Source: Spirochaetia bacterium (GTDB lineage: Bacteria; Spirochaetota; Spirochaetia; SZUA-6; Bin103). From it: a stretch of 64,000 bases of DNA. The DNA lies in contig CBDBOV010000002.1 in NCBI GenBank assembly GCA_965208575.1, forward strand, positions 512,001 to 576,000. Direction: 5' to 3'. The position numbers and the translations under genes are program-made. Shown here one piece after another: positions 18,281 through 50,330 of this stretch (position 1 is the stretch's first letter; every line of letters starts with the position of its first letter). The notes under the pieces were generated by a model that was given only the letters and a program-made list of their open reading frames with translations, was not told the DNA's origin and did no database searches.

Positions 18281-18365
18281 GGTCTGGCCCGGTTACGCGC
18301 GACTTCGTCGAAGTCCGGCACATAGGGTACCACACCGGGAGGCGCAAGTCATCGTGGTGACCAGT

Positions 18366-20318: not shown

Positions 20319-21056
20319 CTAGCGAAGCCGGAAGTCGTTGCGGCCGGAGAGGTCGGTGCCGCGCACCAGGAACACGGTGCGCTGTGCGTCGACGGCGTTG
20401 TTGCGGAGGTCGTGGTGGTACACCGAGGAGGTCGGCATGAAGCGCAGGGTCATGCCGCGGCGCGGGCGGCCGGAGGTGTTGGGTTCGGAGCCGTGCATCA
20501 GGTAGACGTCGTGCAGGGAGACCTGGCCCGGTTCGAGTTCGACGTCGACCGCCTTCGATTTGTCGACGTGCTCGGCGTCCAGCTCCAGGGGGAGGGCGTT
20601 GCCTTCGGCGTCGTTGTGGTGGTGGCTGGCGAGGGTCCGGCCGCGGTGCGTGCCCGGCAGGAAGCGCAGGCAGCCGTTCTCGCGCGTCGAGGCGTCCAGC
20701 GCGATCCAGACGGTGCAGGTGGCCAGCGGGCGGATGGGCCAGTATTCGCCGTCCTGGTGCCACGGCGTGCGCGTGCCCACCCTGGCGGGCTTGGCGAACA
20801 GGCTGGAGTTCCACAGCGCGATGTCGGGCCCGATGAGCTGCGCCACCATGTCCAGGATGCCGGGGTCGCGGGCGTAGTTCAGGAAGCACAGGTCATGCAC
20901 CAACAGGGAGCTGCAGTAGTCCGCGAACTCCGGGTGCCGGGCAATCAGCCGGCCGTGGTCGGCCCTGATCGCCTCGATCGTTTCGAGCGGGAGACGGAAG
21001 TCGGGGACGACGTAACCGTCTCGCGCGTAGCGTTCGATTTCAACCGGCGACAACAT
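20319..21056 (-). CDS. Phytanoyl-CoA dioxygenase (PhyH) family Fe(II)/2OG dioxygenase
   Basis: 'PWHQD..YW', 'TVWIALD.ST.ENGCL..LPGTH', 'HGS..N.S..PRR'. Confidence 0.92.
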   Translation of the reverse strand: MLSPVEIERYARDGYVVPDFRLPLETIEAIRADHGRLIARHPEFADYCSSLLVHDLCFLNYARDPGILDMVAQLIGPDIALWNSSLFAKPARVGTRTPWHQDGEYWPIRPLATCTVWIALDASTRENGCLRFLPGTHRGRTLASHHHNDAEGNALPLELDAEHVDKSKAVDVELEPGQVSLHDVYLMHGSEPNTSGRPRRGMTLRFMPTSSVYHHDLRNNAVDAQRTVFLVRGTDLSGRNDFRLR

Positions 21057-25482: not shown

Positions 25483-26319
25483 CTACGGCGGCGAGAGCCG
25501 CTCGCCGGTGGCGACGCTGCGGAACCATTCGTGGACGACGCGGGGCGCGCGCCCGTCGACGTTGGCGGGCCCACGTTCTGCGCGCGCGTCGTCCTGGTCG
25601 ACGATACGGGTGTCGAGGCTCAGGCGCGTGCGTCCGGTGCGGTTGGGCCGGCTGGCATGCAGGTGCGCCCCGGAGAAGCACAGCAGGTCGCCGGGGTCGA
25701 TGAGCACCGGCACTGCCGCCGCGTCGTCGAGCGGGGCGCGGCACTCGGGCAGCAGCGGATAGCGTCCCGGATCCTCGCGCAGCCGTTCCAGGTCCCACTC
25801 GGCGCTGGTGTTGGGCACGGCGCGGTCGAACAGCGCCGGCCAGATCACCATGGTGGCGCCCGCTTCGACCGGGAACACCGGCCCCCACAGGTTGATCTGC
25901 GCCATGACGTTGGAGCCCCAGGTGTCGCGGTGCGCCGGCAGGTCGCGCATGCGCCGGCCGCGGTGAGTGGCGGCGCCGGGCTGCAGGCGCAGGATGAGGC
26001 GGTCGGCGTACGTGGCGGCGGGGTCGAGCGCGAGCGACTCGATGACCGCTCGAAACGAGGCGCGCACGCGCGCGTCGCGCATGAAGGCCCGTCGCAGCGC
26101 CGCCGCACGGGTACGGAACTCGGCGGCATCGAGCGACGCTTGCGCCTCCGGAGGTGCATGCGGAGCAAACGCCCCGGCGGCCATCGCCCGCGCCTGCGCC
26201 GCCAGGGCTACCATCGCGGGCATTTGCCGAAACACCAGGATCCCGCCCCGGTAGATCCGCTCCCGGTCGAGCGGTGCCTGCACAGCGGTGACGAGGGACT
26301 CCCTGCTGATATCAGCCAC
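25483..26319 (-). CDS. Hypothetical protein, probable Fe(II)/2OG dioxygenase (PhyH-like fold)
   Basis: HxD motif 'PAHRDTW', 'INLWGPV', distal His 'GDLLCFSGAHLHAS', 'TRLSLDTR'. Confidence 0.65.
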   Translation of the reverse strand: MADISRESLVTAVQAPLDRERIYRGGILVFRQMPAMVALAAQARAMAAGAFAPHAPPEAQASLDAAEFRTRAAALRRAFMRDARVRASFRAVIESLALDPAATYADRLILRLQPGAATHRGRRMRDLPAHRDTWGSNVMAQINLWGPVFPVEAGATMVIWPALFDRAVPNTSAEWDLERLREDPGRYPLLPECRAPLDDAAAVPVLIDPGDLLCFSGAHLHASRPNRTGRTRLSLDTRIVDQDDARAERGPANVDGRAPRVVHEWFRSVATGERLSPP

Positions 26320-26358: not shown

Positions 26359-26655
26359 TCAGTAGTGGTAGCGGCATTGCGCGATCTCGCACCGGCCGTT
26401 CGTCACACGGTACACGAGGCGGTGTTCCCGCGTGATGCGGCGCGACCAGTAGCAGGCGATCTCGTGCTTGAGGGGTTCCGGGTTGCCGGCGCCGCGCAAC
26501 GGATGGCGCAGACACTCTTCGATCAGCCGAGCGATTCGCCGCGCGACGGTGCGGTCGTTCTGCGCCCAGTATTGGTAGTCTTCCCACGCATGTCTTGAGA
26601 AGGCGACCTCCCCGCGCGCACTTCCCCGGTCAGGGGAGCGCTTCGACTTCGCCAT
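26359..26655 (-). CDS. yoeB: Txe/YoeB family toxin
   Basis: 'AWEDYQYW...RI..LI....R.P..G.G.PEPLKH....WSRRIT.EHRLVY....IAQCRYHY'. Exact start is uncertain. Confidence 0.92.
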   Translation of the reverse strand: MAKSKRSPDRGSARGEVAFSRHAWEDYQYWAQNDRTVARRIARLIEECLRHPLRGAGNPEPLKHEIACYWSRRITREHRLVYRVTNGRCEIAQCRYHY

Positions 26656-26905
26656 CGACGAGGGTGGCTCCGATCAGCCTGCCGGCCTCGATGTCGGCGA
26701 TGCCCTCGCGCAGGCGTTCGGCGTTGTGCGGCGAGCGCAGCAGGTGGAACGTCTCCAACATGGCGTCGTACTCGGACTTGGCCATCATGATCACCGGATC
26801 GCCCTTGGTCCGCGTTATCACCACCGTTACGCGGTCGTCGACGGCCGCGTCCATGAACGACTTCAGGTTCTGGCGCGCCTCGGTGTAGTTCGTGATGCGT
26901 TCCAT
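26630..26905 (-). CDS. yefM: Phd/YefM family antitoxin
   Basis: 'NYTEARQNLKS.MD...D...V.ITR......M....Y.A..ET.HLLRSP.NA.RL'. Confidence 0.92.
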   Translation of the reverse strand: MERITNYTEARQNLKSFMDAAVDDRVTVVITRTKGDPVIMMAKSEYDAMLETFHLLRSPHNAERLREGIADIEAGRLIGATLVDGEVEALP

Positions 26906-26915
26906 GTGCTGGATA

Positions 26916-26942
26916 TTGTACGTACAGGTTTATGTACGTCAA
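26916..26942. promoter_or_regulatory. Probable yefM-yoeB operator
   Basis: TTGTACGTACA-ggttta-TGTACGTCAA, TGTAC-core palindromes just upstream of yefM, as in known yefM operators. Confidence 0.55.
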
Positions 26943-29836: not shown

Positions 29837-29947
29837 ATGCCCGCCTGTCGTACCGAAGGTGACGCCTACGAAAAAGAAGGCCGCCGAGTGCCGGCTGCCG
29901 GCTGTGGGTTGCAATAGGGCGAGTGATTCGCCATATTGAGTCTCAAA

Positions 29948-31111
29948 GTGGCGTTTGTAGGGAGATTTTTCGAGCCTCCGGCACAGAGTTACTACCTGTT
30001 CGGGCCGCGCGGCACCGGCAAGTCGGCCTGGACCCAACATCGCTACCGGGACGGCGTGCGCATCGACCTGCTGCGCCCGGCCACCCTGCAGCGCTACCGG
30101 TCGCGCCCCGACCGCCTGTTCGACCTGGTCCACGCTCAGCCCGACGGGCAGGTGATCGTGATCGACGAGGTGCAGCGGGTCCCGGCACTGCTCAGCGCCG
30201 TCCATGCCCTCATCGAAGAGCACCGCGGCTGGCGGTTCGTGCTGACCGGGTCGAGCGCACGCAAGCTCAGGCGAGGCGGCGTCGACCTCATGGCGGGCCG
30301 GGCCGTGGTACGGACCATGCATCCTTTCATGGCGGCGGAGCTGGGCGACGCGTTCGATCTTCGCGCGGCGCTGCAGCGCGGGCTGCTGCCGCTGGTGTTG
30401 GGCGCAGAGGACCCGGTCGACACGCTGGAAGGCTACATCGCCGTCTACGTGCGCGAAGAGGTGCAAGTGGAGGGGCTGGTGCGGGACCTGGACCGATTCT
30501 CCCGGTTCCTGGAGGCGGTCACGTTCTCGCACGGGCAGCTCATGAACGTCAGCAACATCGCCCGCGACAGCGAAGTGAGCCGCAAGACGGTGGAGGGCTA
30601 CCTGGGCGTGCTGGAGGACCTGCTGCTGAGCTTTCGCGTGCCGGTGTTCCGCAAGCGCGCCGCGCGCGCCACGGTCGCGCACGACAAGCTGTACCTGTTC
30701 GATTGCGGGGTGTTCCGCTCGCTGCGCCCATCCGGGCCGCTCGACCGGCGCGAGGAGATCGCCGGAGCGGCGCTGGAAGGGCTGGTGGCCCAGCACCTGC
30801 GCGCATGGCTCGCCTATCGCGGCGCGGGCGACCGCCTGTACTACTGGCGCACGCGGGCCGGGTCGGAGGTGGACTTCATCCTCTACGGGCCGGAGCAGTT
30901 CACCGCCATCGAGGTGAAGCACAGCGCCGCGGTGCGGCGGGCCGACCTGCGCTCGCTACGCTCGTTCCACGCCGACTACCCGGAAGCGGAGCGCCTGCTG
31001 CTCTACCTCGGCGACGAGGAACTGTCCATCGACGGCGTTCTGTGCCTGCCGTGCGACCGCTTCCTGCGCCGGCTGCATCCGCGCCGCGCGCTGCCGACGA
31101 CTGCGGCCTGA
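29948..31111 (+). CDS. AAA_14 ATPase with DUF4143 C-terminal domain
   Basis: GPRGTGKS, IDEVQRVP, LTGSSARKL, 'KLYLFDCGV', 'YWRT..G.EVDF......AIEVK' PD-(D/E)xK-like end. Confidence 0.9.
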   Translation: MAFVGRFFEPPAQSYYLFGPRGTGKSAWTQHRYRDGVRIDLLRPATLQRYRSRPDRLFDLVHAQPDGQVIVIDEVQRVPALLSAVHALIEEHRGWRFVLTGSSARKLRRGGVDLMAGRAVVRTMHPFMAAELGDAFDLRAALQRGLLPLVLGAEDPVDTLEGYIAVYVREEVQVEGLVRDLDRFSRFLEAVTFSHGQLMNVSNIARDSEVSRKTVEGYLGVLEDLLLSFRVPVFRKRAARATVAHDKLYLFDCGVFRSLRPSGPLDRREEIAGAALEGLVAQHLRAWLAYRGAGDRLYYWRTRAGSEVDFILYGPEQFTAIEVKHSAAVRRADLRSLRSFHADYPEAERLLLYLGDEELSIDGVLCLPCDRFLRRLHPRRALPTTAA

Positions 31112-31234: not shown

Positions 31235-32104
31235 CTATTGCAGGTCGGGGCTGCGCGGGGCGACCGGTTCCAGGACGGAGCGCCGCTCCGGGGTAAGGCG
31301 TTCGCGCAGGCCGGGGGAGAGCTGATAGTTGAACCGGGTGCGTATGTGGCGCGGCGAGTAGCGGTACAGCACGGTGCGGCGGTAGCCGGGGTTGGTGCGC
31401 TCGGCGGAGCCGTGGGTCACGGCGTCGGTGAACAGCAGCACGTCGCCGGCGCGCAGGTGCACTTCGCGCATGCCGAGCGCGTTGCCGGCTCCCTCGCGCT
31501 CGTGGGTGGCGGCGGTGATCGGCTCACCCTCCACCTCCAGCCGCGGGTGCACCTCGGTGGCCTTGTGGCTGCCGGGCACTAGTACCGTGGGGCCGTCGCC
31601 GGGGCCGATGTCGTTCAGCGCCATGATCACGTTGATCTGGCCCACCATCCAGGCGCCGGTGTTGTGCTGGCGGAAGGTCATGTAGCTCAGCGGCACGTGG
31701 CCCCCGGAGTGGATGTAGAGGAAGCCTCCCCGGGTGCGCACGTTGAGCAGGGTCTCGTGAATCGACAGCCGGTTGACCGGATTGACGTAGCGGCTCACCA
31801 GGGGCAGCCAGGCCGGGTAGTCGATCAGGCGCTCGAACACCGCGCCCCCTTCCACGATGTTCTGGAAGTTCACGCCGTCGTCCGGGCTGTAGCTGTGCAG
31901 CTCCACGTGGCCGATCCAGCGCCCCCGTTGCTGCTTGCCGCGCTCGTCTTCGCGCGCCGGCGCCTCCTCGACGTAGCTCCAGTGATCGTCCAGCCACCGG
32001 TTCATGGCCGCAAGGTCGCGCTCCGCAAGCGCCCCCGGCAGCACCAGGTACCCCTGCAGATCGAACAAGTAATCGCACTGTCTGTCGTCGAGAACGCCGC
32101 GCAT
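31235..32104 (-). CDS. PhyH family dioxygenase
   Basis: 'YLFDLQGYLVL', 'ALNDIGPGDG.T.LVPGSHK', 'GDVLLFTDAVTHGS', 'RR..LYRY'. Confidence 0.85.
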   Translation of the reverse strand: MRGVLDDRQCDYLFDLQGYLVLPGALAERDLAAMNRWLDDHWSYVEEAPAREDERGKQQRGRWIGHVELHSYSPDDGVNFQNIVEGGAVFERLIDYPAWLPLVSRYVNPVNRLSIHETLLNVRTRGGFLYIHSGGHVPLSYMTFRQHNTGAWMVGQINVIMALNDIGPGDGPTVLVPGSHKATEVHPRLEVEGEPITAATHEREGAGNALGMREVHLRAGDVLLFTDAVTHGSAERTNPGYRRTVLYRYSPRHIRTRFNYQLSPGLRERLTPERRSVLEPVAPRSPDLQ

Positions 32105-32312
32105 GGCCCTCACCCTGCCGCAACCGCCGCCGGTCGGCAACCCTCCGCCGCGCGCGGTGCGCGCTGTGGTCCTTCTCGGGACGGCGCTCGTAGCGGCCGC
32201 GGCGGCGTTCGCCGGCCCGTCATCCGAGCCGTCCGCCTCGGGTGTACCGGAGCGCGGGGTGGAACCCGGCGGTGCGGCGCTCGAGCGCAGGCGGTGCTTC
32301 GCCGCGAGCGCC

Positions 32313-34166
32313 CTACGGCGTCCCGATCATGCCGGTGCGGCGGAGAATCTGGTCGACGCACTCCTGTGCCGTGCGCGCGTTGGTGTCCACCCGGATCTCG
32401 GGACTCTCGGGCGGTTCATACGGACTGCCGATGCCGGTGAAGTTGGGAAGCTCGCCGCGGCGTGCCTTGGCGTACAGCCCCTTGGTGTCGCGCGCCTCGC
32501 AGGTACCGAGCGACGCGTCGACGAACACCTCCACGAAGTCGCCCTTCGCGAACAGGCGCCGCGCCGCGTCCCGGTCCGCGCGAAACGGGCTGATCAGGGC
32601 TACGATGACGATCAGCCCCGCGTCGACCATCAGGCGCGCCACCTCGGCCACGCGCCGGATGTTCTCGATGCGGTCGTCCTCGGTGAATCCCAGGTCCCGG
32701 TTGAGGCCGTGCCGCACATTGTCGCCGTCCAGCACGTAGCTGTGCCTGCCCTCCAGGTGCAGCCGCTGCTCCAGGAGATTCGCCAACGTCGACTTCCCCG
32801 CGCCCGACAGGCCGGTCATCCACAGGCAGCGCGCGGACTGGCGCTTCGCTTCGCTGCGCAGGTGCTGGGTGACCTGAAAGCGCTGCCAGCGGATGTTCGA
32901 CGAACGGCGCAGCGCGTACCGAATCATGCCGGCGCCCGCCACCGAGGCGGTGAGCTGGTCCAGGAGGATGAAACCGCCGAGCACTTGCGATTCGTCGTAC
33001 GGGGCGAACGGAATGCGCCGGTTGGTCGACACGTCCACCTCGGCCGTGTCGCTCCGCTCCAGCCTCGTGGCCGGGCGCGGCCCTTCCTCGGGGTCCACGA
33101 CGTGCTTGATACGGGTCACGGTGGCGCCCACCTCGATGCCGTGCAGCACAAGCGTCACGGCGCGGCCCACGTACAGGGGAGCCTCGGCCATCCACAGGAG
33201 CGTGGCGCGGAAGTGGTCGGCAACTTCGAGCGGCGCGGAAGCTCCGGCAATCACGTCGCCCCGGCTGACGTCGACGTCTTCGCTGAGGGTGAGCGTGACC
33301 GAGTCGCCGGCGCCGGCGCGCTCGCGCGTGCCCATACCGGCCACGATCGACTCCACCCGCGTTTCCAGGGCCGACGGGAACAGCGCGACCCGGTCTCCCA
33401 CTCGAACGGTACCCGAAGCGATGCGCCCGCAGTAGCCCCTGAAGTCCGGGCTCGGCCGATTCACGTACTGTACCGGCATGCGAAACGGGCCGGCGTCGCG
33501 CGCGGGCTCCTCCACGTCGACCGTCTCCAGGTACGCCAGCAGCGTCGGGCCCGCGTACCATGGCGCGTCGGCCGCGTTCCAGCGCAGGTTGGCGCCGGTC
33601 AGCGCCGAGGTGGGGATCGCGGTGACGTTCGGTATCCCCGCATCGGCCGCGAGCCGCCGGAAGTCGCCGGCGATGGCGTCGAAGCGTGGCTCGCTCCACG
33701 CGACCGCATCCATCTTGTTCACCGCAAGCACAACCGTACGGATCCCGAACGCGGCGGCGATGCGGGTATGGCGGGCGGTCTGGCGCAGCACGCCCTTCGA
33801 TGCGTCGACCAGCACCACCGCCAGGTCGGAGTTCGACGCCGCGGTGGCCATGTTGTGGGTGTACTGGCCGTGTCCCGGGGCGTCGGCCACCACGAAGCGG
33901 CGCCTGCCGGTCGCGAAGTGGAGGTAGGCGACGTCGATGGTGATGCCCTGCTCGCGTTCCGCCTTCAGTCCGTCGGCCAGCAACGCGAGATCGACGGCGT
34001 CTCCCTGGGTGCCGTAGCGGACCGAGTCCTTCTCGACCGACCGCAGCTTGTCTTCGAACACGCGGCCGCAGTCGTACATCAGGCGGCCGATGAGGGTGCT
34101 CTTGCCGTCGTCGACGCTGCCGCAGATCACCAGCTTCAAGGGCTTCCGGGCCTCCGAGCCACCCAT
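32313..34166 (-). CDS. cysNC: Bifunctional sulfate adenylyltransferase subunit 1 / adenylyl-sulfate kinase (CysNC/NodQ)
   Basis: GTPase motifs 'CGSVDDGKSTLIG', 'EREQGITIDVAY', 'DAPGH', 'VNKMD'; APS kinase motifs 'WMTGLSGAGKST', 'LDGDNVRHGL', 'RDTKGLYAKAR'. Confidence 0.95.
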   Translation of the reverse strand: MGGSEARKPLKLVICGSVDDGKSTLIGRLMYDCGRVFEDKLRSVEKDSVRYGTQGDAVDLALLADGLKAEREQGITIDVAYLHFATGRRRFVVADAPGHGQYTHNMATAASNSDLAVVLVDASKGVLRQTARHTRIAAAFGIRTVVLAVNKMDAVAWSEPRFDAIAGDFRRLAADAGIPNVTAIPTSALTGANLRWNAADAPWYAGPTLLAYLETVDVEEPARDAGPFRMPVQYVNRPSPDFRGYCGRIASGTVRVGDRVALFPSALETRVESIVAGMGTRERAGAGDSVTLTLSEDVDVSRGDVIAGASAPLEVADHFRATLLWMAEAPLYVGRAVTLVLHGIEVGATVTRIKHVVDPEEGPRPATRLERSDTAEVDVSTNRRIPFAPYDESQVLGGFILLDQLTASVAGAGMIRYALRRSSNIRWQRFQVTQHLRSEAKRQSARCLWMTGLSGAGKSTLANLLEQRLHLEGRHSYVLDGDNVRHGLNRDLGFTEDDRIENIRRVAEVARLMVDAGLIVIVALISPFRADRDAARRLFAKGDFVEVFVDASLGTCEARDTKGLYAKARRGELPNFTGIGSPYEPPESPEIRVDTNARTAQECVDQILRRTGMIGTP

Positions 34167-35062
34167 CAGAAATACCCCTCCCGCTTCTTGCGCTCCATCG
34201 ACGCCTCCTCGTCGTGATCGATGACCCGCCCCTCGCGCTCCGACCTGCGCGCCGCCTCGATCTCGGCGACGATCTCGCCGACGCTCGCCGCCGTGCTCTC
34301 CACCGCCGCCGACAGCGGATAACACCCCAGCGTCCGGAAGCGAACGCGCTTGCGGGCCGGCTGCTCACCGGGCTCAAGCGGCATGCGATCGTCGTCCACC
34401 ACGATCCACTGGCCGTTGCGCCGCACCACGGGGCGTTCGGCGGCCAGGTAGAGCGGCACGATCGGGATCTCCTCGCACTTGATGTAGCGCCACACGTCGA
34501 GCTCGGTCCAGCTCGACAGGGCCGCCACCCGCCACGAGTCGCCGGCGGCGAGCCGGGTGGGGTAGAGGCGCCAGATCTCCGGCTGCTGGCGCTTCGGGTC
34601 CCACTGGTGACGGGCGTTGCGCAGCGAAAAGACCCGTTCCTTGGCGCGCGAGGCCTCTTCGTCGCGCCGGGCGCCGATAAATATCACGTCGTGCCGCCCC
34701 TCGTCGAGCGCAGCCAGGAACGGACGCGTCTTCATCTCCGTCGTGTAGCTCTGCGGACTGTGGCTGAACGGGGTGATCCCCTTCCGCGCCCCCTCGTGAT
34801 TGGTGCGGACCCGCAACTCCAGGCCGAAGCGCGCGGCAATCTCGTCGCGGTGCTCGATCATGGCGCGGAACTTCCACGTGGTGTCGACGTGGAGGATGGG
34901 AAAGGGCGGCTTCGCGGGCCAGAACGCCTTGCGCGCGAGGTGCAGGAGGACCGACGAGTCCTTGCCCACCGAGTAGGCCATGACCGGCCGCCGCGCCCGC
35001 GCCACGCCTTCGCGCAAGATCTCGATCGCCTCGGCCTCCAGCTCGTCGAGCCACGCCTTCAC
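34166..35062 (-). CDS. cysD: Sulfate adenylyltransferase subunit 2
   Basis: 'LEAEAI.ILRE', 'YSVGKDSSV', 'HVDTTWKF', 'GARRDEE.SRAKER', '[10 protein letters not shown]', 'SME.KKREGYF'; GTG start about 7 nt after AGGAG. Confidence 0.95.
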
Positions 35063-35172
35063 GTGCACGCTCCTGCCGCCATCGCGTTCCTCCCGCCAGC
35101 CCGTCCCGCACGTTGCACCGTACGGCTCGGGCATGATAATAGACTGCTTGTACAACCATCCAGGACTCCTGA

Positions 35173-36303
35173 ATGGTGAACTTCCGCACGTCTTTTGCGG
35201 GGGAGGCCGAGACGTTGGCGCAGCGCGAAGAGTTCAACCCCATGTCGATGGCGCCTCTGCGCGTGTGGCTGCGCCTGGTCGCCCGGGCGGGCGGAGTGCG
35301 CCGCCCGTTTCGGGGGCGGTTGCAGCAGGCGCTCATCACGAGCGCGATCACCGCGGTTCCGCGCTGGCTCGAGTGGGCCGTCTACGGTGTGCCGATCGCG
35401 CGCACCCGGATCAGCAAGCCGCCGGTGATCATCCTCGGGTTCCCGCGCTCCGGCACGACCCTGCTGCACAACCTGATGGCGCACGATCCCGACCTGGGCT
35501 ACTGCTCCAACTACCAGGCGGCCATTCCGTTCTGCCTGGTCGGCGGCGAGCGGCTCAAGCGGCGGCTGGCTGCGCGGGTGCCGGAGAATCGAGGGATCGA
35601 CAACGTGGCCGCCGACCTGGACCTGCCGCAGGAAGAGGTGTTCGCGCTCGCCATGCACTCCCACCGTTCCTCCGCGCACGGGTTCACTTTTCCTTCCCTG
35701 ATGCCCGAACTGCACCGCAAGTACGTGCTGATGGACGCGCCGGAAGCCGAGGTGAGGGCGTGGCGCAAGGGCTACCTGCAGGTGGTAAAGAAGGCGACCT
35801 ACATGCACGGCGGCAAGCGGGTCGTGCAGAAGGCTACGCCCAATCTCGCGCGCATCCCGGTGATCATGGACATGTTCCCCGGCGCCCTCTACATCCACAT
35901 CGTCCGCAACCCCTACGAGCTCTATCCGTCCTACGTCCACCTGATCTCGACGCTCACCAGGAACTACGGCATGCAGGAGATCACCCCGCAGGAGCTGGAG
36001 GAGGGAGCGGTGCGCATGTACCGGCGAATCATGCGCAAGTATCTCGCTGAACGCCACCTCATCCCCGCCGACCGCTTCATCGAGATCCGGTTCGAGGAGC
36101 TGCGGGACGACCCGCTCGGGGTCCTGGAGCGCGTGTACGGGCATCTTGGACTGAACTGGGAGCAGGCGCGGTCGGCGATCGCGGCCTACGCCGGCACGCA
36201 GGCGTCGTACCGGCAGAATCGCTACGCGGACCGGGAGCACGTGCGGCGCGAAGTCGACGCGCACTGGGGATTCGCGGTGCGGGAGTGGCAGTACCGGCCT
36301 TGA
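35173..36303 (+). CDS. PAPS-dependent sulfotransferase (Sulfotransfer_3 / Stf3-like)
   Basis: 5'-PSB loop '[16 protein letters not shown]', 'PQEE.FAL', 3'-PB '[11 protein letters not shown]', 'IRFEEL..DP'. Start could also be ATG 35242. Confidence 0.9.
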
Positions 36304-38303
36304 GCACGCTCAGCGTCGCGGAAGACCTCAGCCTGCTGCTGCTCGACGAGTCGTCGGGCGTGCTCTACCCGCTGCCGGGGCGGACGCTGGAGATCGGCCT
36401 GGCTGCCGCCGCGCTGCTGGAACTCACGCTGGCCGACCGCATCGACACCGACCTGGAGTCGCTTTACCTGGTGAATGCCGCGCCGCTGGGAGATCCGACG
36501 ACAGACCCGGTGCTGGCACAGATCGCCGCCGGCACGGAGACGCGGTCACCGGAGTACTGGGTGCGCCGTATCGGTGCGCAGCTCGGCGCACGGATCGGAG
36601 AGGCCGCCCTGGCACGGCTGGTGGAGCGCGGTATCCTGGAACGAGCGCCCGGCAACCATTACTTCCTCACCGCCCCGGTGGCGCGTTCGCGGCGCTATCC
36701 GGCGGCCAACGGCGACAGCGCGGACGAGGTTCGCATCCGGCTGATGAAGGTCCTGTTCAGCGACGACATCCCGGAACCGCGCGACGCCGACCTGATCGGA
36801 CTCGCCGAGGCGTGCGGCGTCTTCACCCGCATCCTGAGCCGCGCGGAGCTGGAGCGGGTGCGTGACCGGATCGAGCTGGTGAAGTCGCTCAACCTGCTGT
36901 GCCGCGCGGCCGCGCGGGCGATAGCCGGCGACCTGCGCGAGCGGCCGGCCGCCGCCCGCACCTACCAGCCGATTCCCGATGCCCGCGGGTTGCCGCTGAT
37001 CGGCGCCGGCCTGGCCATGAACGGCGATCTCCAGGAGTTCGTTGCCGGACTGTACCGCGACTACGGACCGATCTGCAGAGTCTCCGCGCCGGGGCGCAAG
37101 ATGATTGTCCTGGGGGGCAGGGAGGCGAACGCGTTCGTGCAGAAACACGCACGCACCCACCTGCGCAGCAACCGGTCGTTCACGGAGTTCTGCCACGCGA
37201 TGGAGACCGACCGGGCGATGATCTCCATGGACGGCCACGACCACATGAAGCTGCGGCGGACCGCGCAGGCGGGCTACTCCCGTTCGGTGATCGAGCGCAG
37301 CATGGACACGGCGATCGACATCGCGCGGCGTGCGGTGGCGTCATGGCCGGTCGGAGATCCGCTGCCGGCGTTTCGCTCGATGCAGCAGATAGTGGCCGAG
37401 CACCTGGGCGTTCTCGCCACCGGCCACTCGCCAGGGGAGTACGTCGAAGACCTGAAGTATTGGTTCGACTCGCTGATCTTCGCCGTGCGGCGCGACCGCC
37501 CGAAGTTCATGCGCGAGTACCGGTTGCGGAAGGTGCGGCCGAGGATAAAGCAGCTCTACCGCCGCGTGGTGGAGTTGCACGCCCCGGAACTGCGTGAAGG
37601 CCGCCCCGGCGACCTGATCGACGCGTTCCTGGAACTGCACCGCGACGAACCGCAGTTCCTGCCGGAGACCGACCTGATGTCCGCGGTGATCGGCCCCTAT
37701 ATCGCGGCGCTCGACACCGTGGCCGGCACCCTCGGCTTCGCGCTGTTGCGCCTGCTCCAGGAACCGGAACACGAGCGGGCGCTGCGCGACGAGGCGGATG
37801 CCGCGTTCGCCGGCGGGACGCCCGATGCACGGCAGATACGAGGGCTGGAGAAGACCCACGCGTTCGTGAAGGAGGTGATGCGCTGCCACACGATCACGCC
37901 GGTGCTCATGCGCACGGCGTGCAACTCGTTCGAGTTCGAGGGCTGCTTCGTGCCCGCCGGCGCTACGCTGCTGCTTGCAGCCGGGGTCGTGCATCGCGAC
38001 CCCGGCTACTATCCCGATCCCGAGCGTTTCGATCCCGACCGGCACCTGCCGCCGCGGCTCGAGTCGAAGCGGACGGGGGCGTTCGTGCCGTTCGGCATCG
38101 GGCCGCACACCTGCATCGGCGGCCCGTTCGCGGAGGTGCAGTTGGCGGTGACCCTCGCCACGATGGTGCACTGCGCCGAGTTCGACCGGGCTCCCTCCGG
38201 CGACCGCCGCATCAGGGTGACGGCCTACCCGAGCATCCGGCCGCACAGGAAGTGCCGCTTCCAGGTGGTGCGGCTCAGGCATGACGGGGGCGCCGCGCAG
38301 TGA
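36300..38303 (+). CDS. GPP34/GOLPH3-like domain fused to cytochrome P450
   Basis: N-terminal ~210 aa 'AEDL.LLLLDE..G......L..GLA.A.L.EL.L..RID......L.........DP.L..I......W...RLV.RGIL' (GPP34-like). C-terminal P450 with I-helix AALDT, ExxR (KEVMR), PERF and heme ligand FGIGPHTCIG. TTGA overlap with the sulfotransferase. Confidence 0.88.
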   Translation: MSTLSVAEDLSLLLLDESSGVLYPLPGRTLEIGLAAAALLELTLADRIDTDLESLYLVNAAPLGDPTTDPVLAQIAAGTETRSPEYWVRRIGAQLGARIGEAALARLVERGILERAPGNHYFLTAPVARSRRYPAANGDSADEVRIRLMKVLFSDDIPEPRDADLIGLAEACGVFTRILSRAELERVRDRIELVKSLNLLCRAAARAIAGDLRERPAAARTYQPIPDARGLPLIGAGLAMNGDLQEFVAGLYRDYGPICRVSAPGRKMIVLGGREANAFVQKHARTHLRSNRSFTEFCHAMETDRAMISMDGHDHMKLRRTAQAGYSRSVIERSMDTAIDIARRAVASWPVGDPLPAFRSMQQIVAEHLGVLATGHSPGEYVEDLKYWFDSLIFAVRRDRPKFMREYRLRKVRPRIKQLYRRVVELHAPELREGRPGDLIDAFLELHRDEPQFLPETDLMSAVIGPYIAALDTVAGTLGFALLRLLQEPEHERALRDEADAAFAGGTPDARQIRGLEKTHAFVKEVMRCHTITPVLMRTACNSFEFEGCFVPAGATLLLAAGVVHRDPGYYPDPERFDPDRHLPPRLESKRTGAFVPFGIGPHTCIGGPFAEVQLAVTLATMVHCAEFDRAPSGDRRIRVTAYPSIRPHRKCRFQVVRLRHDGGAAQ

Positions 38304-39493
38304 CCGGCGGGATCATCGACGACCCCACGTCGATTACGCCGGAGTGGATGCAGGAGACGCTGTCTCGGGGTGGCGCCGGCGCGGTGGCGGTCCGGCGGGT
38401 GGACGTCCGGGACCTCGGCGCCGGCGTCGGGCAGCTCAGCAGGATCCTGCGGGTGAGGCTCGCAGGCAGTGAGTCGTGTCCGGCGAGCGTGGTGGTCAAG
38501 CTGCCGAGCGCCGACCCGCGAATCTTCCGCATGTGCCGGCGCACGGGGCTGTACCGGCGGGAGGACCGTTTCTATCGCGCCGTGGCGCCCACCGTGCCGG
38601 TGTCGGTACCGTCGATTCTGTTCCGGGAGTTCGACGACCGCACGCACCGGTTCGTGCTGGTGATGGAGGACCTGGCAAACCGGCGCGGCGGCGGGGCGGC
38701 GGGCCGCGACCAGCTCGGCGGCGCGAGTGAAGCGGAGGCGATCACCGCCGTGCGGGCGGCGGCGCGCATCCACGCGGCGTACTGGCGCGCACCGAGCGGC
38801 CGTGCGGGGGCGCGGCCGGCATCCGCGCCGGCAGGCTACCGGGACATCTTCCGCCCGCCGGTGCGGTTCGCGTTGCAGTACGTCTACGCCAGAAGCGTGC
38901 CGAGGGTGCGGCGGGAGTTCCCGGGTGCGCTGTCCGAGGAGGAACTGTCGCTCGTGGAAGCGTTCGGGCCGTCCGTGGCGGCCGTGCTCGGCAGCCTGAG
39001 CCGCGGCGCGCGGACGTTCATCCACGGCGACTACCGGCTCGACAACATGTTCTTTCTGCCGGACGCCGCCGACCGGTTCGCCGTCGTGGACTGGCAGGCG
39101 AGCGCCATCGGCAGCGGACTGTACGACGTGGCGTACTTCATCTGCACCAGCCTGACCGAGACGGTGCGGCGGCGCGCCGAGGGCGGGCTGCTGGAGGCGT
39201 ACCACGCGGCGCTGGTCGAGGCGGGCGTGCGCGGCTTCGCCCGCGACGCGTGCCGGCGGCTGTATCGTGCGTGCGTCCTCGCCTGCCTGGTGAGGATGGT
39301 GATCGTGGCCGGTTCTTCGGGGATCGAGAATGACCGGGCGCGCGAGCTGGCGCGGCAGTGCCTGCGGCGAACGGTGGCGGCGATTCACGACCAGGACGCC
39401 TGGACGGTCGCTGCCGGACGCAAGGCCGGGGGGCTCGGCGGGGTGATCACGTGGCTGGCGGACAGGGCCGCGCGGCGCGAGGCGGCGCGATGA
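38300..39493 (+). CDS. APH/choline/ecdysteroid-kinase-like small-molecule phosphotransferase
   Basis: 'G.G.LS.I.RV', 'SVVVKLP', 'RE.RFY', 'LVMEDL', 'TFIHGDYRLDNMFF', 'VVDWQ', 'DVAYF'; GTGA overlap. Confidence 0.85.
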   Translation: MTGGIIDDPTSITPEWMQETLSRGGAGAVAVRRVDVRDLGAGVGQLSRILRVRLAGSESCPASVVVKLPSADPRIFRMCRRTGLYRREDRFYRAVAPTVPVSVPSILFREFDDRTHRFVLVMEDLANRRGGGAAGRDQLGGASEAEAITAVRAAARIHAAYWRAPSGRAGARPASAPAGYRDIFRPPVRFALQYVYARSVPRVRREFPGALSEEELSLVEAFGPSVAAVLGSLSRGARTFIHGDYRLDNMFFLPDAADRFAVVDWQASAIGSGLYDVAYFICTSLTETVRRRAEGGLLEAYHAALVEAGVRGFARDACRRLYRACVLACLVRMVIVAGSSGIENDRARELARQCLRRTVAAIHDQDAWTVAAGRKAGGLGGVITWLADRAARREAAR

Positions 39494-41115
39494 CCGGCCC
39501 GGGGCGCGGCCCGGCGCTCGCGTGGCGGAGCGCGATGGCGGCGCTGTTCCTGGTCGCCCTCGGCAACACCGCGGTGGTCACCGTGCTGCCGGCGATCATC
39601 GCGGACCTGGGCGGCTTCGACCGCTACGCATGGGCATCCACCTCCTACCTGATCGCCGCCACCACCGCCATGCCGATCGCCGGCAGGCTGGCCGATCTTC
39701 ATGGCCGCCGGGCGTTCTTTCTGATCGGCGTGGTGATCTTCATGGCGGCCTCCATACCGGTGGCGCTGAGCGGTACCATGGAGCAACTCGTCCTGTTCCG
39801 GGCCCTGCAGGGGCTCGGCGGCGGCATCATCATGGTCAACAGCACCGCCGCTATCGCGGACCTGGCGCCCCCCAAGGAGCGCGGCAAGTACCACGGCTTC
39901 ATGGGGATGGTGTTCAGCCTTGCCACCGTCGTGGGGCCGCTGGTGGGCGGGATCGTGGTCGACCGCTTGCATTGGTGGGGGTGGGCGTTCCTGATCAACG
40001 TGCCGCTGGGCATTCCGGTGTTGATCCTGCTCGCGCGCTTCTTTCCGCGTCCCGGCGCCCTGGCGCCGGCGCAACCGGAGACCTCAGCCGGCGCCGGCGG
40101 GTCCGCGAGCGCGCCGCGGATCGACTATGCAGGCATCGCCACCCTGGTGCCGGCGACCGTCGCCACCCTGGTGGCGCTGTCGGTGGCGGGGGTGCAGTTT
40201 CCGTGGCGTTCGTGGCAGGTCGTTTGCCTGCTCGCCGTCGGGCTGGCGATGACCGTGGTGTTTCTGGCGGTCGAGTCGCGCTCGCGGTGCCCGATCGTAC
40301 CGCTGACGATCTATCGCTACCGCGGCGTGCCGGCCGCGGTGGCGGCCACCTTCCTGGCAAGCTTCGGCCTGTACGGCATCATTCTGTTCGTTCCGCTGTT
40401 TTTCCAGGCGGTGCAGAATGCCTCCGCCGGACGCAGCGGCGTGTTCCTGGTGCCGATCATCGTCGGCGTCACGGTGGGCGCCGTGGCGGCGGGCCAGTTG
40501 GTGTCCCGCACCGAGGGGCGCGAGCGGCTCCTCGCCGTGGCGGGCGCCGTACTCCTCACCGGCGGCATCTACCTGCTTTCGACGCTGTCCGCCGAGACCG
40601 GCTCCGTGCTGGCCGTTGCCTACGTCCTGCTCATGGGCGCCGGGGTCGGCGCGGTGTTCACGCTGGCGGGGGTGGTGGTGCAGAACGCCGTCCCGCACGA
40701 GGATGCGGGCGCGGCCACCGCGGCCGTACAGTTTCAGCGGGCGGTAGGCGGTACGGTGGGCGTGGCGGTGCTCGGCGCGATGATGGCACGGCGCACCGCG
40801 GACCGGCTCCGCGAGGAGGTACCGGCGCGCGTGCGCGAACTGCTCCCCGACGGGTGGCTGGACCTGGCCAACGCAACCCAACTGCTCGTCGATCGGTCCG
40901 CTGCCGCCACCCTCGCCGAGCAGATTTCGGCGCCAGGGTCGGGCGCGGCCGAGCTGGCCCGGGAAGTAGCCGGCTACGCCGCGGCGGCGTTGGGCGGAGC
41001 GCTCGGCGACACCTTCCTGCTCGCGGCAGCGGTCGCCGGCGCTTCGCTGGCGGTCGCGTTCTTCATGCGCGTCCCCGGGGAGCGTACCAGGGCCGGAGAT
41101 CCGCCCCCAACCTGA
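39490..41115 (+). CDS. MFS efflux transporter, DHA2 (14-TM) type
   Basis: 'GRLADLHGRR' motif A, 'RALQGLGGG', 'GPLVGG', 'WAFLINVPLG'; ATGA overlap. Confidence 0.9.
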   Translation: MTGPGRGPALAWRSAMAALFLVALGNTAVVTVLPAIIADLGGFDRYAWASTSYLIAATTAMPIAGRLADLHGRRAFFLIGVVIFMAASIPVALSGTMEQLVLFRALQGLGGGIIMVNSTAAIADLAPPKERGKYHGFMGMVFSLATVVGPLVGGIVVDRLHWWGWAFLINVPLGIPVLILLARFFPRPGALAPAQPETSAGAGGSASAPRIDYAGIATLVPATVATLVALSVAGVQFPWRSWQVVCLLAVGLAMTVVFLAVESRSRCPIVPLTIYRYRGVPAAVAATFLASFGLYGIILFVPLFFQAVQNASAGRSGVFLVPIIVGVTVGAVAAGQLVSRTEGRERLLAVAGAVLLTGGIYLLSTLSAETGSVLAVAYVLLMGAGVGAVFTLAGVVVQNAVPHEDAGAATAAVQFQRAVGGTVGVAVLGAMMARRTADRLREEVPARVRELLPDGWLDLANATQLLVDRSAAATLAEQISAPGSGAAELAREVAGYAAAALGGALGDTFLLAAAVAGASLAVAFFMRVPGERTRAGDPPPT

Positions 41116-44875: not shown

Positions 44876-45037
44876 GTGAGCCGGTACGGTCACTCCGTGA
44901 CAGGGAAGACGATGAAAACCGATGCCCGAGCATCGCCCACCAGCCGGCTTTTTTCGGACCAGCCTACGGTCAGCGAACGGTTCGCCGTGGGCCGAGTGCC
45001 TGAAAAAAGTCGAGAAAATCGCTCGCTGCGGGCCTGA
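44876..45037 (+). pseudogene. Degenerate copy of the N-terminus of the lipoprotein gene at window start
   Basis: 44876-44960 aligns with the reverse complement of 129-212 (CGGTACGGTCACTCCGTGACAGGGAAGACGATGAAA identical). An extra T in the T-run near 44949-44954 shifts the frame. Confidence 0.7.
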
Positions 45038-45227
45038 GGGGGTTGACATGGTTTCGGGCGCGCGATTGCGCCACGTCCCCGACCCCGCCTGTTCCGCTCC
45101 CCTTGGCGCCCTCAGCGCGCGCTCTCGGCCCGCCGCGTCCGGGTCTGGCGCGCAAAGCCCAAATCGGACGGGCGGCTCGTCCACGGGCCGGCACGGGGCC
45201 ACCGAATACCGGGTGTACCATGGCGGC

Positions 45228-46889
45228 ATGGCACCTGACACCTATACGCAGCCGCGCCCGCCGACGCCGTCAGCGCGGCCTGAACCGGCAGCCACCGGCC
45301 CAGCCGCGACCGCGGCCACCACCGCTGCGAGGGCGCCCGGCGCGAGCGAGACTGCGCCGCTCGCCGTTGCCGACAGCGCAGCGCCTCCGGCCCCGGAGGC
45401 ACCGCCCGACCTGAATCAGCTCGGCAACCGCATCGCCGAGCTGTCGGCGCGCATCCAGGCCGCCACCTACGAGTTGCTGTGTTACGTGCGCGAGTTCGAC
45501 CGCCACCACGGCTGGGAGGGCTTCCGTTCCTGCGCCCACTGGCTCAACTGGCGCACCGGCCTCGACCTCGGCGCTGCCCGCGAGAAGCTGCGCGTGGCCG
45601 CTGCGCTGGCCGATCTCAACCACCTCTCCGCGGCCATGGCCTGCGGTCGGCTGTCCTACTCCATCGTACGCGCCCTGACTCGAGTGGCCACCGCCGACAA
45701 CGAGGCACGGCTGATTGCCGTGGCCTGCTGTGCCACCGCGGCGCAGGTGGAGCGGCTGGTGCGGGGGTGGCGGCAGGCGGACCGGGAGGCGCAGCCGGAC
45801 GCGGAGCAGGTGCGGCTCGCGCGGCGCACGCTGACCACGCGGGTGGACGAGGACGGCATGGTGGTGCTGCGGGCGCGGCTTACGCCTGAGGTAGGCGCGG
45901 TAGTGCTGCGGGCGCTGGAGGCGGCCCTGGAGCAGGTGCCGGCGGCGGAGGAGGAGGATACCGCCGGCGGCGACGAGGCGAGCATCGCGCAGCGGCGTGC
46001 GGATGCGCTGGGGCTGGTGGCCGAGAGCGCGCTGGCCGGCGGGCTTGATCCGGGCAGCAGCGGCGACCGCTTCCAGGTGACGGTACACGTGGAGGCTGAC
46101 GGGCTTTGCTGCCGCGAGGCCGCCACGGCCCCGCGGCACGTTTCCGCGGAAATTGCGCCGGGCAGCGAGGCAGCCTTCGCACCGGCGGCAGCGTTACTGG
46201 GCGGGGTGGCGGAGCAAGTGTCGATCGAGCACGCGGAGAAACTACCGGCCACCGAGGCGCCCGACCGTGACCTGGCGGTCCCGATGCCTGGCCCCGACGC
46301 CGGGCAGGCGGTGATCGAACAAGCAGGAGGCATATACGTCGGCAAGGAGGCAGCGCGTCGCGTCGCCTGCGATGCCGGCCTCGTGGAGCTGCGCCACGGC
46401 GCCGACGGCGAGGTGCTCGAAGTAAGCCGCAGGACCCGCACCATCCCGACCGCGCTGCGCCGTGCCCTGCAGAGCAGGGATCGCAACCAGTGCCAGTTCC
46501 CCGGCTGCGAGTCCCGCCACTGCGACGCCCATCACGTCATGCACTGGGCCGACGGCGGGGAGACGCAGCTCTTCAACCTGGTTCTTGTGTGTAAATTCCA
46601 CCACCGCGCGGTCCACGAGGAGGGGTTTCAGGTGGTCGCTGACGGCGCCGGGGCGTTCCTGTTCCTCCGGCCGAATGGCGAGCCGCTGCCGGCGGTGCCA
46701 CCGGCGCCGCGCTGGGAGGGTGTCGGGCCGCCGCTGGCGCCGACCGTGGAGCGCTTGGCGGCGGCCGGCATCAGCATCGGTCCGCACACCGCTACGCCCG
46801 AGTGGTTCGGCGAATCGCTGCACGTGGCGGCGGCGCTCGACGTGCTGTGGCAGCCGCCGGTGGCGGCGGCGCGCGGCGGCGTTCCCTGA
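45228..46889 (+). CDS. DUF222 + HNH endonuclease (13E12 repeat family-like)
   Basis: 'FD...GW.GFRSCAHWL.WR.G......RE..RVA.AL', 'QRRADAL', 'RR.ACDA', 'R.RT.P.ALRRAL..RD..C.FPGC.....DAHH..HWA.GG.T...NL...C..HH..VHE'. Confidence 0.9.
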   Translation: MAPDTYTQPRPPTPSARPEPAATGPAATAATTAARAPGASETAPLAVADSAAPPAPEAPPDLNQLGNRIAELSARIQAATYELLCYVREFDRHHGWEGFRSCAHWLNWRTGLDLGAAREKLRVAAALADLNHLSAAMACGRLSYSIVRALTRVATADNEARLIAVACCATAAQVERLVRGWRQADREAQPDAEQVRLARRTLTTRVDEDGMVVLRARLTPEVGAVVLRALEAALEQVPAAEEEDTAGGDEASIAQRRADALGLVAESALAGGLDPGSSGDRFQVTVHVEADGLCCREAATAPRHVSAEIAPGSEAAFAPAAALLGGVAEQVSIEHAEKLPATEAPDRDLAVPMPGPDAGQAVIEQAGGIYVGKEAARRVACDAGLVELRHGADGEVLEVSRRTRTIPTALRRALQSRDRNQCQFPGCESRHCDAHHVMHWADGGETQLFNLVLVCKFHHRAVHEEGFQVVADGAGAFLFLRPNGEPLPAVPPAPRWEGVGPPLAPTVERLAAAGISIGPHTATPEWFGESLHVAAALDVLWQPPVAAARGGVP

Positions 46890-49420: not shown

Positions 49421-50046
49421 TTCGCTTGGCAATCGTAGTAGAGGGGGAAACAGAGGAGGAGTTCGTGAAGCGCGTGCTTACCGCACATCTTCAGACGCGC
49501 GAGGTTCAGGCGACGCCTCACTCGATCGGCGGGAACGTAACGGTGGAGCGATTGGCATATGAGATGGCCAACTATTTCTGGTCGTACGATCGCGTGACAT
49601 CGCTCGTCGATTTCTACGGATTTCGGAACAAGGGTCAGGCGTCGCGGGAAGACCTGGAAGCACGCATACATGAACAGGTGAGCAAGAACATCAAACGGAG
49701 CTGGGATCGATCACGCGTGTTTCCGTACGTCCAACAGTATGAATTCGAGGGTCTGCTGTTCTCCGATGTCATGGTCTTTGGGAAGTTGCTGGATCGTCCT
49801 CCAAATCTGGTGGAGAAGCTGAGCGCGGTCAGATCGAGGTTCCCGACCCCGGAAGAGATCAATGACAACAAAGAAACGAAACCGAGCAGGCGCATCAAAG
49901 ACCTGATGCCGAGTTACCAAAAGAGGGTCGATGGGCCCTTTCTCGCCGGCAGCATCGGATTGGCTACGCTTCGCACAGAATGCCCGCGATTTGGAAGGTG
50001 GCTTGCGCGGCTGGAGCAACTGGAGAATCAGCAGCATCCGCAGTGA
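49417..50046 (+). CDS. DUF4276 family protein (TOPRIM-like)
   Basis: 'IVVEGETEEEFV', 'VTSLVDFYG', 'PYVQQYEFEGLLFSD', 'PEEIND...T.PS.RI', 'Y.K..DG', 'CPRF..WL'; ATGA overlap with the ATPase. Confidence 0.85.
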   Translation: MIRLAIVVEGETEEEFVKRVLTAHLQTREVQATPHSIGGNVTVERLAYEMANYFWSYDRVTSLVDFYGFRNKGQASREDLEARIHEQVSKNIKRSWDRSRVFPYVQQYEFEGLLFSDVMVFGKLLDRPPNLVEKLSAVRSRFPTPEEINDNKETKPSRRIKDLMPSYQKRVDGPFLAGSIGLATLRTECPRFGRWLARLEQLENQQHPQ

Positions 50047-50330
50047 TCCAAGTTGGGGCCTCGCGATCGGCACCGCCGGTTGCTTGGTCAGGTGCTGTGT
50101 CCAGGACCGTCCGGTGGCCGCCGACGTGCGGGGGCTGCATGATGCGGTGGCGGCGGTCGGCGAGGTGGAAGGTGCCACGTTTGTCGTCAGTCACGGTATC
50201 GGCCGAGCTACAAACGCGCGCCAATCGCCCCGTCGACCATCCGCAATCGCTCTCTCCGCCCTTGCTCACACAGGCCCACTGGTCCGTGGCCCGTGGCACC
50301 GGCGCGGCCTGTCGTGCGATCTTTCCTACC

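Follow-up and report, generated by a model that had tools for sequence, protein, structure and literature searches.

A 64,000-nucleotide stretch of a Spirochaetia bacterium genome (referred to as the window; G000:C2:512001-576000, approximately 70% G+C) carries at 32313-41115 a compact six-gene cassette. Judged from sequence comparisons, this cassette probably provides its own 3′-phosphoadenosine 5′-phosphosulfate (PAPS) and serves the oxidation, the sulfation and/or phosphorylation, and the export of a lipophilic molecule, with a sterol as the likeliest candidate. The source genome, G000, is 95% complete. The cassette spans 8.8 kb. Its minus strand holds cysNC and cysD, and divergently from these the plus strand holds genes for a sulfotransferase, a GPP34::cytochrome P450 fusion, a kinase, and an MFS pump:

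32313-34166, minus strand: cysNC, sulfate adenylyltransferase large subunit plus adenosine 5′-phosphosulfate (APS) kinase (Pfam, NCBIfam; ATG start)
34166-35134, minus strand: cysD, sulfate adenylyltransferase small subunit (PAPS_reduct, 155.8 bits)
35135-35172, no strand: divergent intergenic gap (from the sequence)
35173-36303, plus strand: PAPS-dependent sulfotransferase, bacterial Stf/Sulfotransfer_3 type (PF13469, 129.2 bits; gathering threshold 27)
36300-38303 (or from 36285), plus strand: GPP34::cytochrome P450 fusion (GPP34, 116.0 bits; p450, 189.1 bits)
38300-39493, plus strand: EcKL/APH-family small-molecule kinase (EcKL, PF02958, 63.6 bits, gathering threshold 22; APH, 58.2 bits)
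39490-41115, plus strand: DHA2-like MFS efflux permease (MFS_1, 175.2 bits)

In the mechanism that we propose, CysD and CysNC would make PAPS for sulfation only, and assimilation would use a separate APS-reductase pathway. The fusion protein would oxidize a lipophilic molecule residing in the membrane, most likely a host sterol, with its GPP34 domain acting as a lipid- or membrane-targeting module and not as a reader of phosphatidylinositol 4-phosphate (PI4P). The Stf-type sulfotransferase and the EcKL-type kinase would turn hydroxyls into sulfate and/or phosphate esters, and the DHA2-like pump would export the anionic product. The sequence comparisons themselves show which genes are present, the additional PAPS supply, the behavior of the cassette as a transferred unit, its association with sponges, and the repeated pairing of this P450 family with enzymes acting on hydroxyls, with efflux pumps, and with sterol enzymes; reaction order, substrate, and GPP34 function are inferred.

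Gene content and junctions of the cassette

All five functions that an initial annotation had assigned to this region were recovered with Pfam and NCBIfam. CysNC matched APS_kinase with 220.3 bits (profile positions 3-152 of 152) and GTP_EFTU with 138.6 bits, and it scored above the cutoff of the NCBIfam model NF004035 for bifunctional CysN/APS kinase (828 versus 715). Likewise, CysD exceeded the cutoff of the equivalog NF009214 (441 versus 413). For the sulfotransferase, NCBIfam gave no match; homologues with 34 to 37% identity carry Stf3-type JGI names, and the PDB sequence matches were 2z6v, 2zq5, and the CurM/OLS sulfotransferases. The motifs of the sulfotransferase and the kinase were read by eye, not by a program. 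The sulfotransferase has a PRSGTT loop and RNPxxxxxS, which we take to be the 5′-phosphosulfate-binding (5′-PSB) and 3′-phosphate-binding (3′-PB) PAPS motifs, and the kinase has HGDYRLDN (HGDxxxxN) and VVDWQ. The kinase clusters with "CHK kinase-like" groups (Atlas), and its PDB matches are ACAD10/11-type APH domains. The pump scored just below the cutoff of the DHA2 efflux model TIGR00711 (216.6 versus 230.2). In the fusion protein, GPP34 covers approximately residues 1-213 and the P450 domain approximately residues 228-660.

The three 4-bp overlaps reported between the plus-strand genes (TTGA at 36300, GTGA at 38300, and ATGA at 39490) were confirmed from the sequence, and the cysD stop codon shares 1 nt with the ATG of cysNC (TGATG). 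The fusion gene could equally well start at an in-frame GTG at 36285 (19-nt overlap), and a GTG is present at the matching offset in the related genome G017. Stop/start overlaps are frequent in high-GC operons and are little proof alone; recurrence of the six-gene block elsewhere (see below) is stronger evidence that the cassette is a unit. The gap of about 110 nt originally given between cysD and the sulfotransferase gene holds if Met24 is the start codon (approximately 107 nt), but not if the first ATG (35173) is used, which leaves 38 nt. A promoter scan found no sigma-70-like site in this gap; a scan for promoters and terminators yielded no promoter-like sites, and terminator-like sites at chance level.

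The six genes recur as a block in related genomes

Conservation of gene order had been set beforehand as one of the tests on which the proposed module could fail. All six genes were found in unchanged order in G006 and G017. Furthermore, short contigs from sponge metagenomes of three studies span the cysD/sulfotransferase, P450/kinase, and kinase/MFS junctions, as well as the junction between cysNC and a neighboring PhyH gene. G006 belongs to the same genus (housekeeping CysN 95% identical), and its entire region is syntenic. G017 belongs to another genus of the same family, and its DNA homology covers exactly 32313-35092 (88.5% identity) and 35197-41068 (86.8%); within the cassette, DNA homology is missing solely from 35093-35196, around the divergent gap.

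The cassette proteins of G000 and G017 are 81 to 89% identical, compared with 72% for housekeeping CysN, a thin baseline of one marker. In G017, the block sits between a Hydantoinase_B and a Hydantoinase_A gene (locus L104 on G017:C4, 3398-5170 and 14056-16116), with junctions of approximately 8 and 19 bp. Such hydantoinase genes are normally paired. G007, a closer relative (CysN 93% identical), lacks the cassette and has only a 40%-identical P450-kinase-MFS paralogue. This pattern fits lateral movement of the six-gene block, that is, a discrete, horizontally mobile cassette.

The cassette cysDNC is a predicted extra PAPS supply

The concern that cysDNC might be the sole housekeeping copy was dispelled by a second locus in G000 (C2:347700-352000), 196 kb from the cassette, with cysH, cysD, cysN, and a cobA/hemD fusion. 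The housekeeping CysH carries CC, CxxC, and ECGLH, which we take to be the hallmarks of APS reductases. With a CysH of this type, assimilation would need no PAPS. The C-terminal APS-kinase domain of the housekeeping CysN is degenerate (partial match, 29 bits), and the cassette CysNC is the sole APS_kinase match in G000 at E ≤ 1e-20. The two proteins are only 34% identical, and thus the cassette CysNC appears to be an old paralogue rather than a recent copy. In line with the initial annotation, the window contains neither a PAPS_reduct-type cysH nor a NIR_SIR sulfite reductase (cysIJ); these lie at C2:347980 and C1:42782-44068, the sulfite reductase being on a contig other than that of the cassette. 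We conclude that the cassette cysDNC is a predicted extra, dedicated, non-assimilatory PAPS supply.

G000 has a second, larger Sulfotransfer_3 gene (612-residue open frame, in C5:90183-95663), and approximately 5 kb from it lies a 73-residue APS-kinase-like remnant (29 bits). In G001, G003, G006, G007, G018, G019, G021, and G023, an intact standalone APS kinase (approximately 105 bits) is found beside the C5-type sulfotransferase. The C5 APS kinase may have been broken in G000, leaving the cassette as the sole PAPS source.

GPP34-P450 genes recurrently lie near genes for sterol enzymes, efflux pumps, and enzymes that modify hydroxyls

A scan of GTDB species genomes yielded 489 confirmed GPP34-P450 relatives, and neighborhoods were counted for the best-scoring 80 of the 489, using naive open reading frames (ORFs) within approximately 6 kb of the P450, BLAST clusters, and Pfam names. 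These loci include close kin, so the following fractions are not independent counts:

Sulfotransfer_3 homologue of the window enzyme: 18/80 (mostly 0 to 120 bp from the P450; found under 13 taxon labels; as many as three copies in tandem)
Second sulfotransferase type: 5/80
EcKL kinase: 6/80 (MFS gene in each)
Acyl_transf_3: 4/80
AcrB-type RND pump: 27/80 (mostly with HlyD and OEP genes)
KshA-like Rieske oxygenase: 25/80 (best PDB matches KshA)
Sterol_MT_C methyltransferase: 10/80
Amine-oxidase-like flavoprotein: 10/80
AMP-ligase: 5/80
None of these types: 8/80

The co-occurrence check suggested with the initial annotation thus gave a positive answer for the P450 with the sulfotransferase and for the P450 with kinase and MFS pump, in many phyla. 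The combination with cysD and cysNC was present at 1/80 loci, L040, in the order cysD-cysNC-P450-sulfotransferase and all in one direction. The best PDB match of the amine-oxidase neighbor, LkcE, is uninformative on the substrate.

Different partners are found even within the family of the window, where GPP34_L, as this fusion type is called in sponge symbionts, occurs with an acyltransferase (G010, G003, and G018), with kinase and MFS pump (G007 and G023), with a Rieske oxygenase (G001), or in the full cassette (G000, G006, and G017). To follow these partners, a FastTree phylogeny of 91 P450 sequences (the 80 loci, the window, and 10 relatives, with the partial G018 left out) was midpoint rooted; its branch supports are local only, not bootstrap values. 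The window, G006, and G017 fall into clade 1 next to L011-L016, whose neighbors are RND, Rieske, amine oxidase, or none. In a "conjugation" clade, sulfotransferase, kinase, acyltransferase, and AMP-ligase partners alternate between sister tips and between phyla, and clade 3 has RND, Rieske, and methyltransferase neighbors. Since three kinds of hydroxyl-modifying enzyme interchange beside close P450s, the P450 would provide, or work next to, a hydroxyl that is later derivatized. This partner swapping is our main comparative argument, and it fits P450-linked hydroxyl derivatization. The oxidation, conjugation, and export module of the initial annotation is in agreement with it; what that annotation had missed is that GPP34-P450 is an already published family with a different proposed role (see below).

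The same interchangeability could mean that sulfate, phosphate, or acyl groups on the P450-made hydroxyl are leaving groups, eliminated to give a desaturated or rearranged lipid. CurM/OLS sulfotransferases and ACAD10/11-type kinases activate hydroxyls for elimination, and these are the proteins matched by the sulfotransferase and the kinase, respectively. However, the matches are weak (E 1e-5 to 1e-10), the cassette has no eliminating domain (thioesterase or ACAD), and an exporter suits an anionic end product. We consider elimination chemistry very improbable.

A P450 gene beside a Sulfotransfer_3 gene is also the layout of the Mycobacterium tuberculosis sulfomenaquinone operon, according to PMC7404182, and some of the 34 to 37% identical sulfotransferase homologues bear the JGI name "omega-hydroxy-beta-dihydromenaquinone-9 sulfotransferase." The cassette could accordingly modify an isoprenoid lipid of its own cell, such as menaquinone, in the manner of Cyp128/Stf3, yielding a sulfated (and phosphorylated) envelope lipid. 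Against this, P450 plus sulfotransferase pairs were found in Pseudomonadota, Acidobacteriota, Chloroflexota, Gemmatimonadota, and others, which have differing quinones, and a family confined to sponge symbionts suggests a substrate or target linked to the host. An own-lipid substrate seems quite improbable to us.

At 26 of the 27 RND loci (L011-L090), the pumps are 62 to 96% identical across Acidobacteriota, Gammaproteobacteria, Binatia, and Rhodothermales (the exception, L059, is at 25%), which suggests that P450 and RND pump travel between phyla as a block. In Vicinamibacterales (L054, L056, L061, and L071), AMP-binding genes of the acyl-AMP ligase type flank the P450 on both sides.

Some transporter was present at 43/80 loci, as would also be expected for detoxification or resistance, with the P450, the sulfotransferase, and the APH-type kinase inactivating a toxin of the sponge or its microbiome and the pump expelling it for self-protection. 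Moreover, the best named NCBIfam matches of the pump are the drug-efflux proteins OtrB, Tcr3, and TcmA (all far under the cutoffs), the APH/EcKL superfamily includes antibiotic kinases, and the cassette appears to be mobile. A dedicated PAPS supply, however, suggests sustained flux and not occasional defense, and at the paralogous loci the sterol methyltransferases and SdmA/SdmB-like genes stand for tailoring, not for resistance. Furthermore, reports of the family are limited to sponge symbionts (PMC11706023). Self-protection is in our view an unlikely function.

The fusion protein is a GPP34_L of sponge symbionts

Cassette pieces with 88 to 99% identity were detected in "sponge metagenome" runs of three studies. 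With one run per study, near-identical pieces of the cassette covered 30/30 bins of the stretch in X10 and X12 and 29/30 bins in X7. In a large protein collection, the fusion has 125 homologues, mostly metagenomic and nearly all with two domains. The GTDB relatives are all metagenome-assembled genomes (MAGs), several with names of sponge symbionts, from Binatia, Chloroflexota, Acidobacteriota, Gemmatimonadota, Latescibacterota, Pseudomonadota, Bacteroidota/Rhodothermota, and other taxa. By its two-domain architecture and its sponge-associated DNA, the window fusion is identified as the "GPP34_L" of sponge symbionts.

According to Ferreira et al. (2025, Microbiome 13:4; PMC11706023), GPP34_L is exclusive to sponge symbionts and a marker of their lifestyle, with 656 copies over the 20 phyla analyzed in that paper. 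In that study, GPP34_L is viewed as a eukaryote-like effector that binds host PI4P, blocks phagosome maturation, and thereby evades phagocytosis; the neighboring genes would then be incidental. In line with such a role, GPP34 is enriched in sponge symbionts, missing from free-living relatives, and expressed in situ (PMC11706023). The flank analysis described there is confined to GPP34_S, and the main text mentions no sulfotransferase, sterol, or MFS (PMC11706023).

The GPP34 domain of the window protein is well supported (PF05719, 116 bits versus a gathering threshold of 29.1). A single GPP34 sequence gave no match in the PDB, and a profile of 22 N-domains was needed to detect GOLPH3 (3kn1, 9.6e-12) and Vps74 (E approximately 1e-11), a relationship that speaks for PI4P binding. 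In GOLPH3, W81, R90, R171, and R174 are the PI4P residues, and R90L abolishes binding (PMC3596250). However, these residues are not conserved in the 22 N-domains: W81 corresponds to L/V/I in 21/22 and never to Trp, R90 to Ala in 20/22 and never to Arg, R171 to Arg in 0/22, and R174 to Arg in 8/22. The window protein has L25, A35, A97, and G100 at these positions. The mapping was made by profile alignment, and one clade has a Trp two residues off, so that the W81 call is alignment dependent, unlike the change from R90 to Ala. A GOLPH3-type PI4P reader was rejected for GPP34_L on these grounds.

Other features of the fusion are also at odds with an effector. No signal-peptide-like N terminus was seen by eye, the gene is apparently coupled translationally to genes for cytoplasmic enzymes, efflux pumps adjoin it in many phyla, and the catalytic P450 motifs are all invariant. 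Taken together, a PI4P effector is quite improbable. For GPP34_L, a family without known function, the neighborhoods offer a concrete and testable enzymatic role, and they argue against the PI4P hypothesis.

G000 has standalone GPP34_S genes as well, at C5:811881-812495 (51% identical to the fusion N-domain) and C3:380409-381011 (39%). Such genes were found in nearly every genome of the family (f1) and in 0/17 searched genomes of the same order outside f1. One homologue of the fusion (P0030, 926 residues) has two GPP34 domains before the P450 domain. Three candidates for further fusions were rejected. P0031 comprises GPP34, the N-terminal half of the P450, and a C-terminal sulfotransferase part, which looks like a deletion or misassembly and not like a Rosetta-stone fusion; P0046 adds only an MFS fragment; and the 1,024-residue ORF of L028 is no fusion but another frame that stays open across the sulfotransferase gene (the RND count is 27 and the any-transporter count 43).

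The P450 domain and its substrate

In 22 homologues, E525, R528, G599, G601, C605, and G607 (ExxR and FxxGxxxCxG) are invariant. The AlphaFold2 model of the fusion had a pLDDT of 88.1 and a pTM of 0.80, and Foldseek gave the P450 domain (PF00067, 189.1 bits) a target-normalized TM-score of 0.83 to CYP184A1. The P450 part of the model is about equally similar to CYP184A1 (with bound oleic acid), P450 BM3, and Methylococcus CYP51. Because these neighbors are split between fatty-acid hydroxylases and CYP51, the fold leaves the substrate undecided. Membership in CYP51 was rejected: CYP51 proteins were the best PDB sequence matches, but only over the C-terminal half (E 1.5e-30) and with 21% identity (Foldseek), and the I-helix reads AALDTV, which we counted against a CYP51 signature. 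Another P450-like stretch in G000 (C3:759086-760528, 25% identity) has two in-frame TGA stops and is possibly a pseudogene.

Evidence for a sterol came from paralogous loci. In a Binatia MAG (L045, 8931-19282), a KshA-like Rieske gene, the GPP34-P450 gene, an amine oxidase gene, a 3β-hydroxysteroid dehydrogenase (3β-HSD)/epimerase-like gene, a VanA_C-type Rieske gene, and three tandem sterol methyltransferase genes lie together. Brown et al. (2023; PMC10070321) described sterol clusters of sponge symbionts with sterol methyltransferases plus sdmA/sdmB, and the L045 set matches these. In G000, no squalene or oxidosqualene cyclase was found that could make sterols or hopanoids of its own, and therefore any sterol would be host derived; KshA_C was not found in G000 either. 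Sterols bearing both sulfate and phosphate, the haplosamates, are reported from sponges (reviewed in PMC10384810). Based on the paralogues in sterol clusters, a kinase family that includes steroid kinases, the lack of a cyclase, and the haplosamates of sponges, a sterol is the best single guess for the substrate, with a chance that we put slightly short of even.

Several observations weigh against this assignment or against parts of the proposed pathway. The sterol link runs via paralogues only 31 to 41% identical to the window P450, the cassette itself has no sterol-specific gene, and the fatty-acid hydroxylases CYP184A1 and BM3 are structurally as prominent as CYP51. The AMP-ligase flanks hint at a carboxylic substrate in the Vicinamibacterales clade. 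No redox partner was found in the cassette and no cytochrome P450 reductase (CPR)-type FAD_binding_1 protein in G000. Across 41 relatives, APS kinase and Sulfotransfer_3 did not cleanly co-occur: several have a strong APS kinase and no Sulfotransfer_3 match, and in G009 and G010 an APS kinase lies near GPP34_L without such a sulfotransferase. Finally, sulfotransferase and kinase were found together at 0/80 loci and at 3/91 overall (the window, G006, and G017), and thus a product with both sulfate and phosphate is the least supported step.

A more far-reaching version of the sterol assignment is that GPP34_L proteins are oxygenases of a host-sterol tailoring that extends across the sponge microbiome, and not PI4P effectors, and that the cassette makes sterol sulfates and the rare phosphorylated sterol sulfates of haplosamate type known as sponge isolates. 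We regard this version as doubtful. If it were true, symbionts would be the makers of well-known sulfated steroids ascribed to sponges, and after export these compounds would target the host or its microbiome. More generally, a sterol substrate would give the sulfated and phosphorylated steroids behind sponge pharmacology a link to bacterial genes, and it would bear on who makes or modifies sponge sterols and hence on sterane biomarkers. With its small size and its own PAPS supply and exporter, the cassette is well suited to heterologous expression.

Surroundings of the cassette

Two adjacent genes are outside the transferable unit, a GNAT gene after the MFS pump gene and the following PhyH gene downstream of cysNC:

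31235-32140, minus strand: PhyH-family Fe/2-oxoglutarate dioxygenase (PF05721, 56.9 bits)

The PhyH gene is present in G006 and absent beside the G017 cassette. It is one of three PhyH-family genes inside 12 kb of the window (20319-21056, 25483-26319, and 31235-32140), and in G019 and G021, GPP34_L paralogues have PhyH homologues with 38 to 39% identity at a distance of 4 to 5 kb. The wider surroundings are mosaic (16670-19979, 26630-26929, 29936-31111, 44922-46889, and 49866-51689) and contain an AAA_15/AbiEii-like ATPase, a DDE transposase, a Phd/YefM antitoxin, a DUF4143 ATPase, a DUF222 protein, and a sulfatase. The window also has an ORF of 2,386 residues at 619-7779.

Comparison with known systems

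In rhizobia, NodP/NodQ and NodH represent a second CysD/CysN-APS kinase set of a symbiont beside a sulfotransferase, which sulfates a host-directed lipid signal. That signal is a lipochitooligosaccharide, and the Nod system, unlike the cassette, has no P450 or kinase. Insect EcKL kinases (PF02958) phosphorylate steroid hydroxyls; the window kinase shares this Pfam family but sits in the bacterial "CHK kinase-like" branch, which has no known substrate.

The two-domain architecture of GPP34_L in PMC11706023 is identical to that of the window fusion, and standalone GPP34_S genes likewise occur in G000 and in almost the whole of its family. The published role is PI4P binding, whereas here the flanks point to lipid tailoring. 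The paralogous GPP34-P450 genes sit with KshA-like Rieske, 3β-HSD-like, and Sterol_MT_C genes as in the sponge sterol clusters of PMC10070321; the main text of that paper mentions no P450 or Rieske protein, and the window cassette lacks those sterol genes. A literature search, which for PMC11706023 and PMC10070321 covered the main texts, retrieved no described system with all five functions. To this extent the five-function layout appears new, in keeping with the initial annotation, but Cyp128-Stf3, BT_0411-BT_0416, and NodPQH share parts of it.

In M. tuberculosis cyp128-stf3, a P450 gene likewise adjoins a gene for a Sulfotransfer_3-type enzyme, and a lipid is hydroxylated and then sulfated (PMC7404182). 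This system has no GPP34 domain, kinase, exporter, or dedicated cysDNC, its substrate is the bacterium's own menaquinone, and the likeness is one of layout, not of direct sequence comparison. In Bacteroides thetaiotaomicron BT_0411-BT_0416 (Le et al., 2022; PMC9417993), the sulfotransferase gene adjoins putative PAPS-synthesis genes, as in the cassette. That cluster lacks P450, kinase, and MFS exporter, and it was shown experimentally to turn host or dietary cholesterol into cholesterol sulfate (PMC9417993), whereas the cassette is known from its genes alone. Should the substrate be a sterol, the cassette would be a marine counterpart of the cholesterol sulfation that gut Bacteroides carry out.

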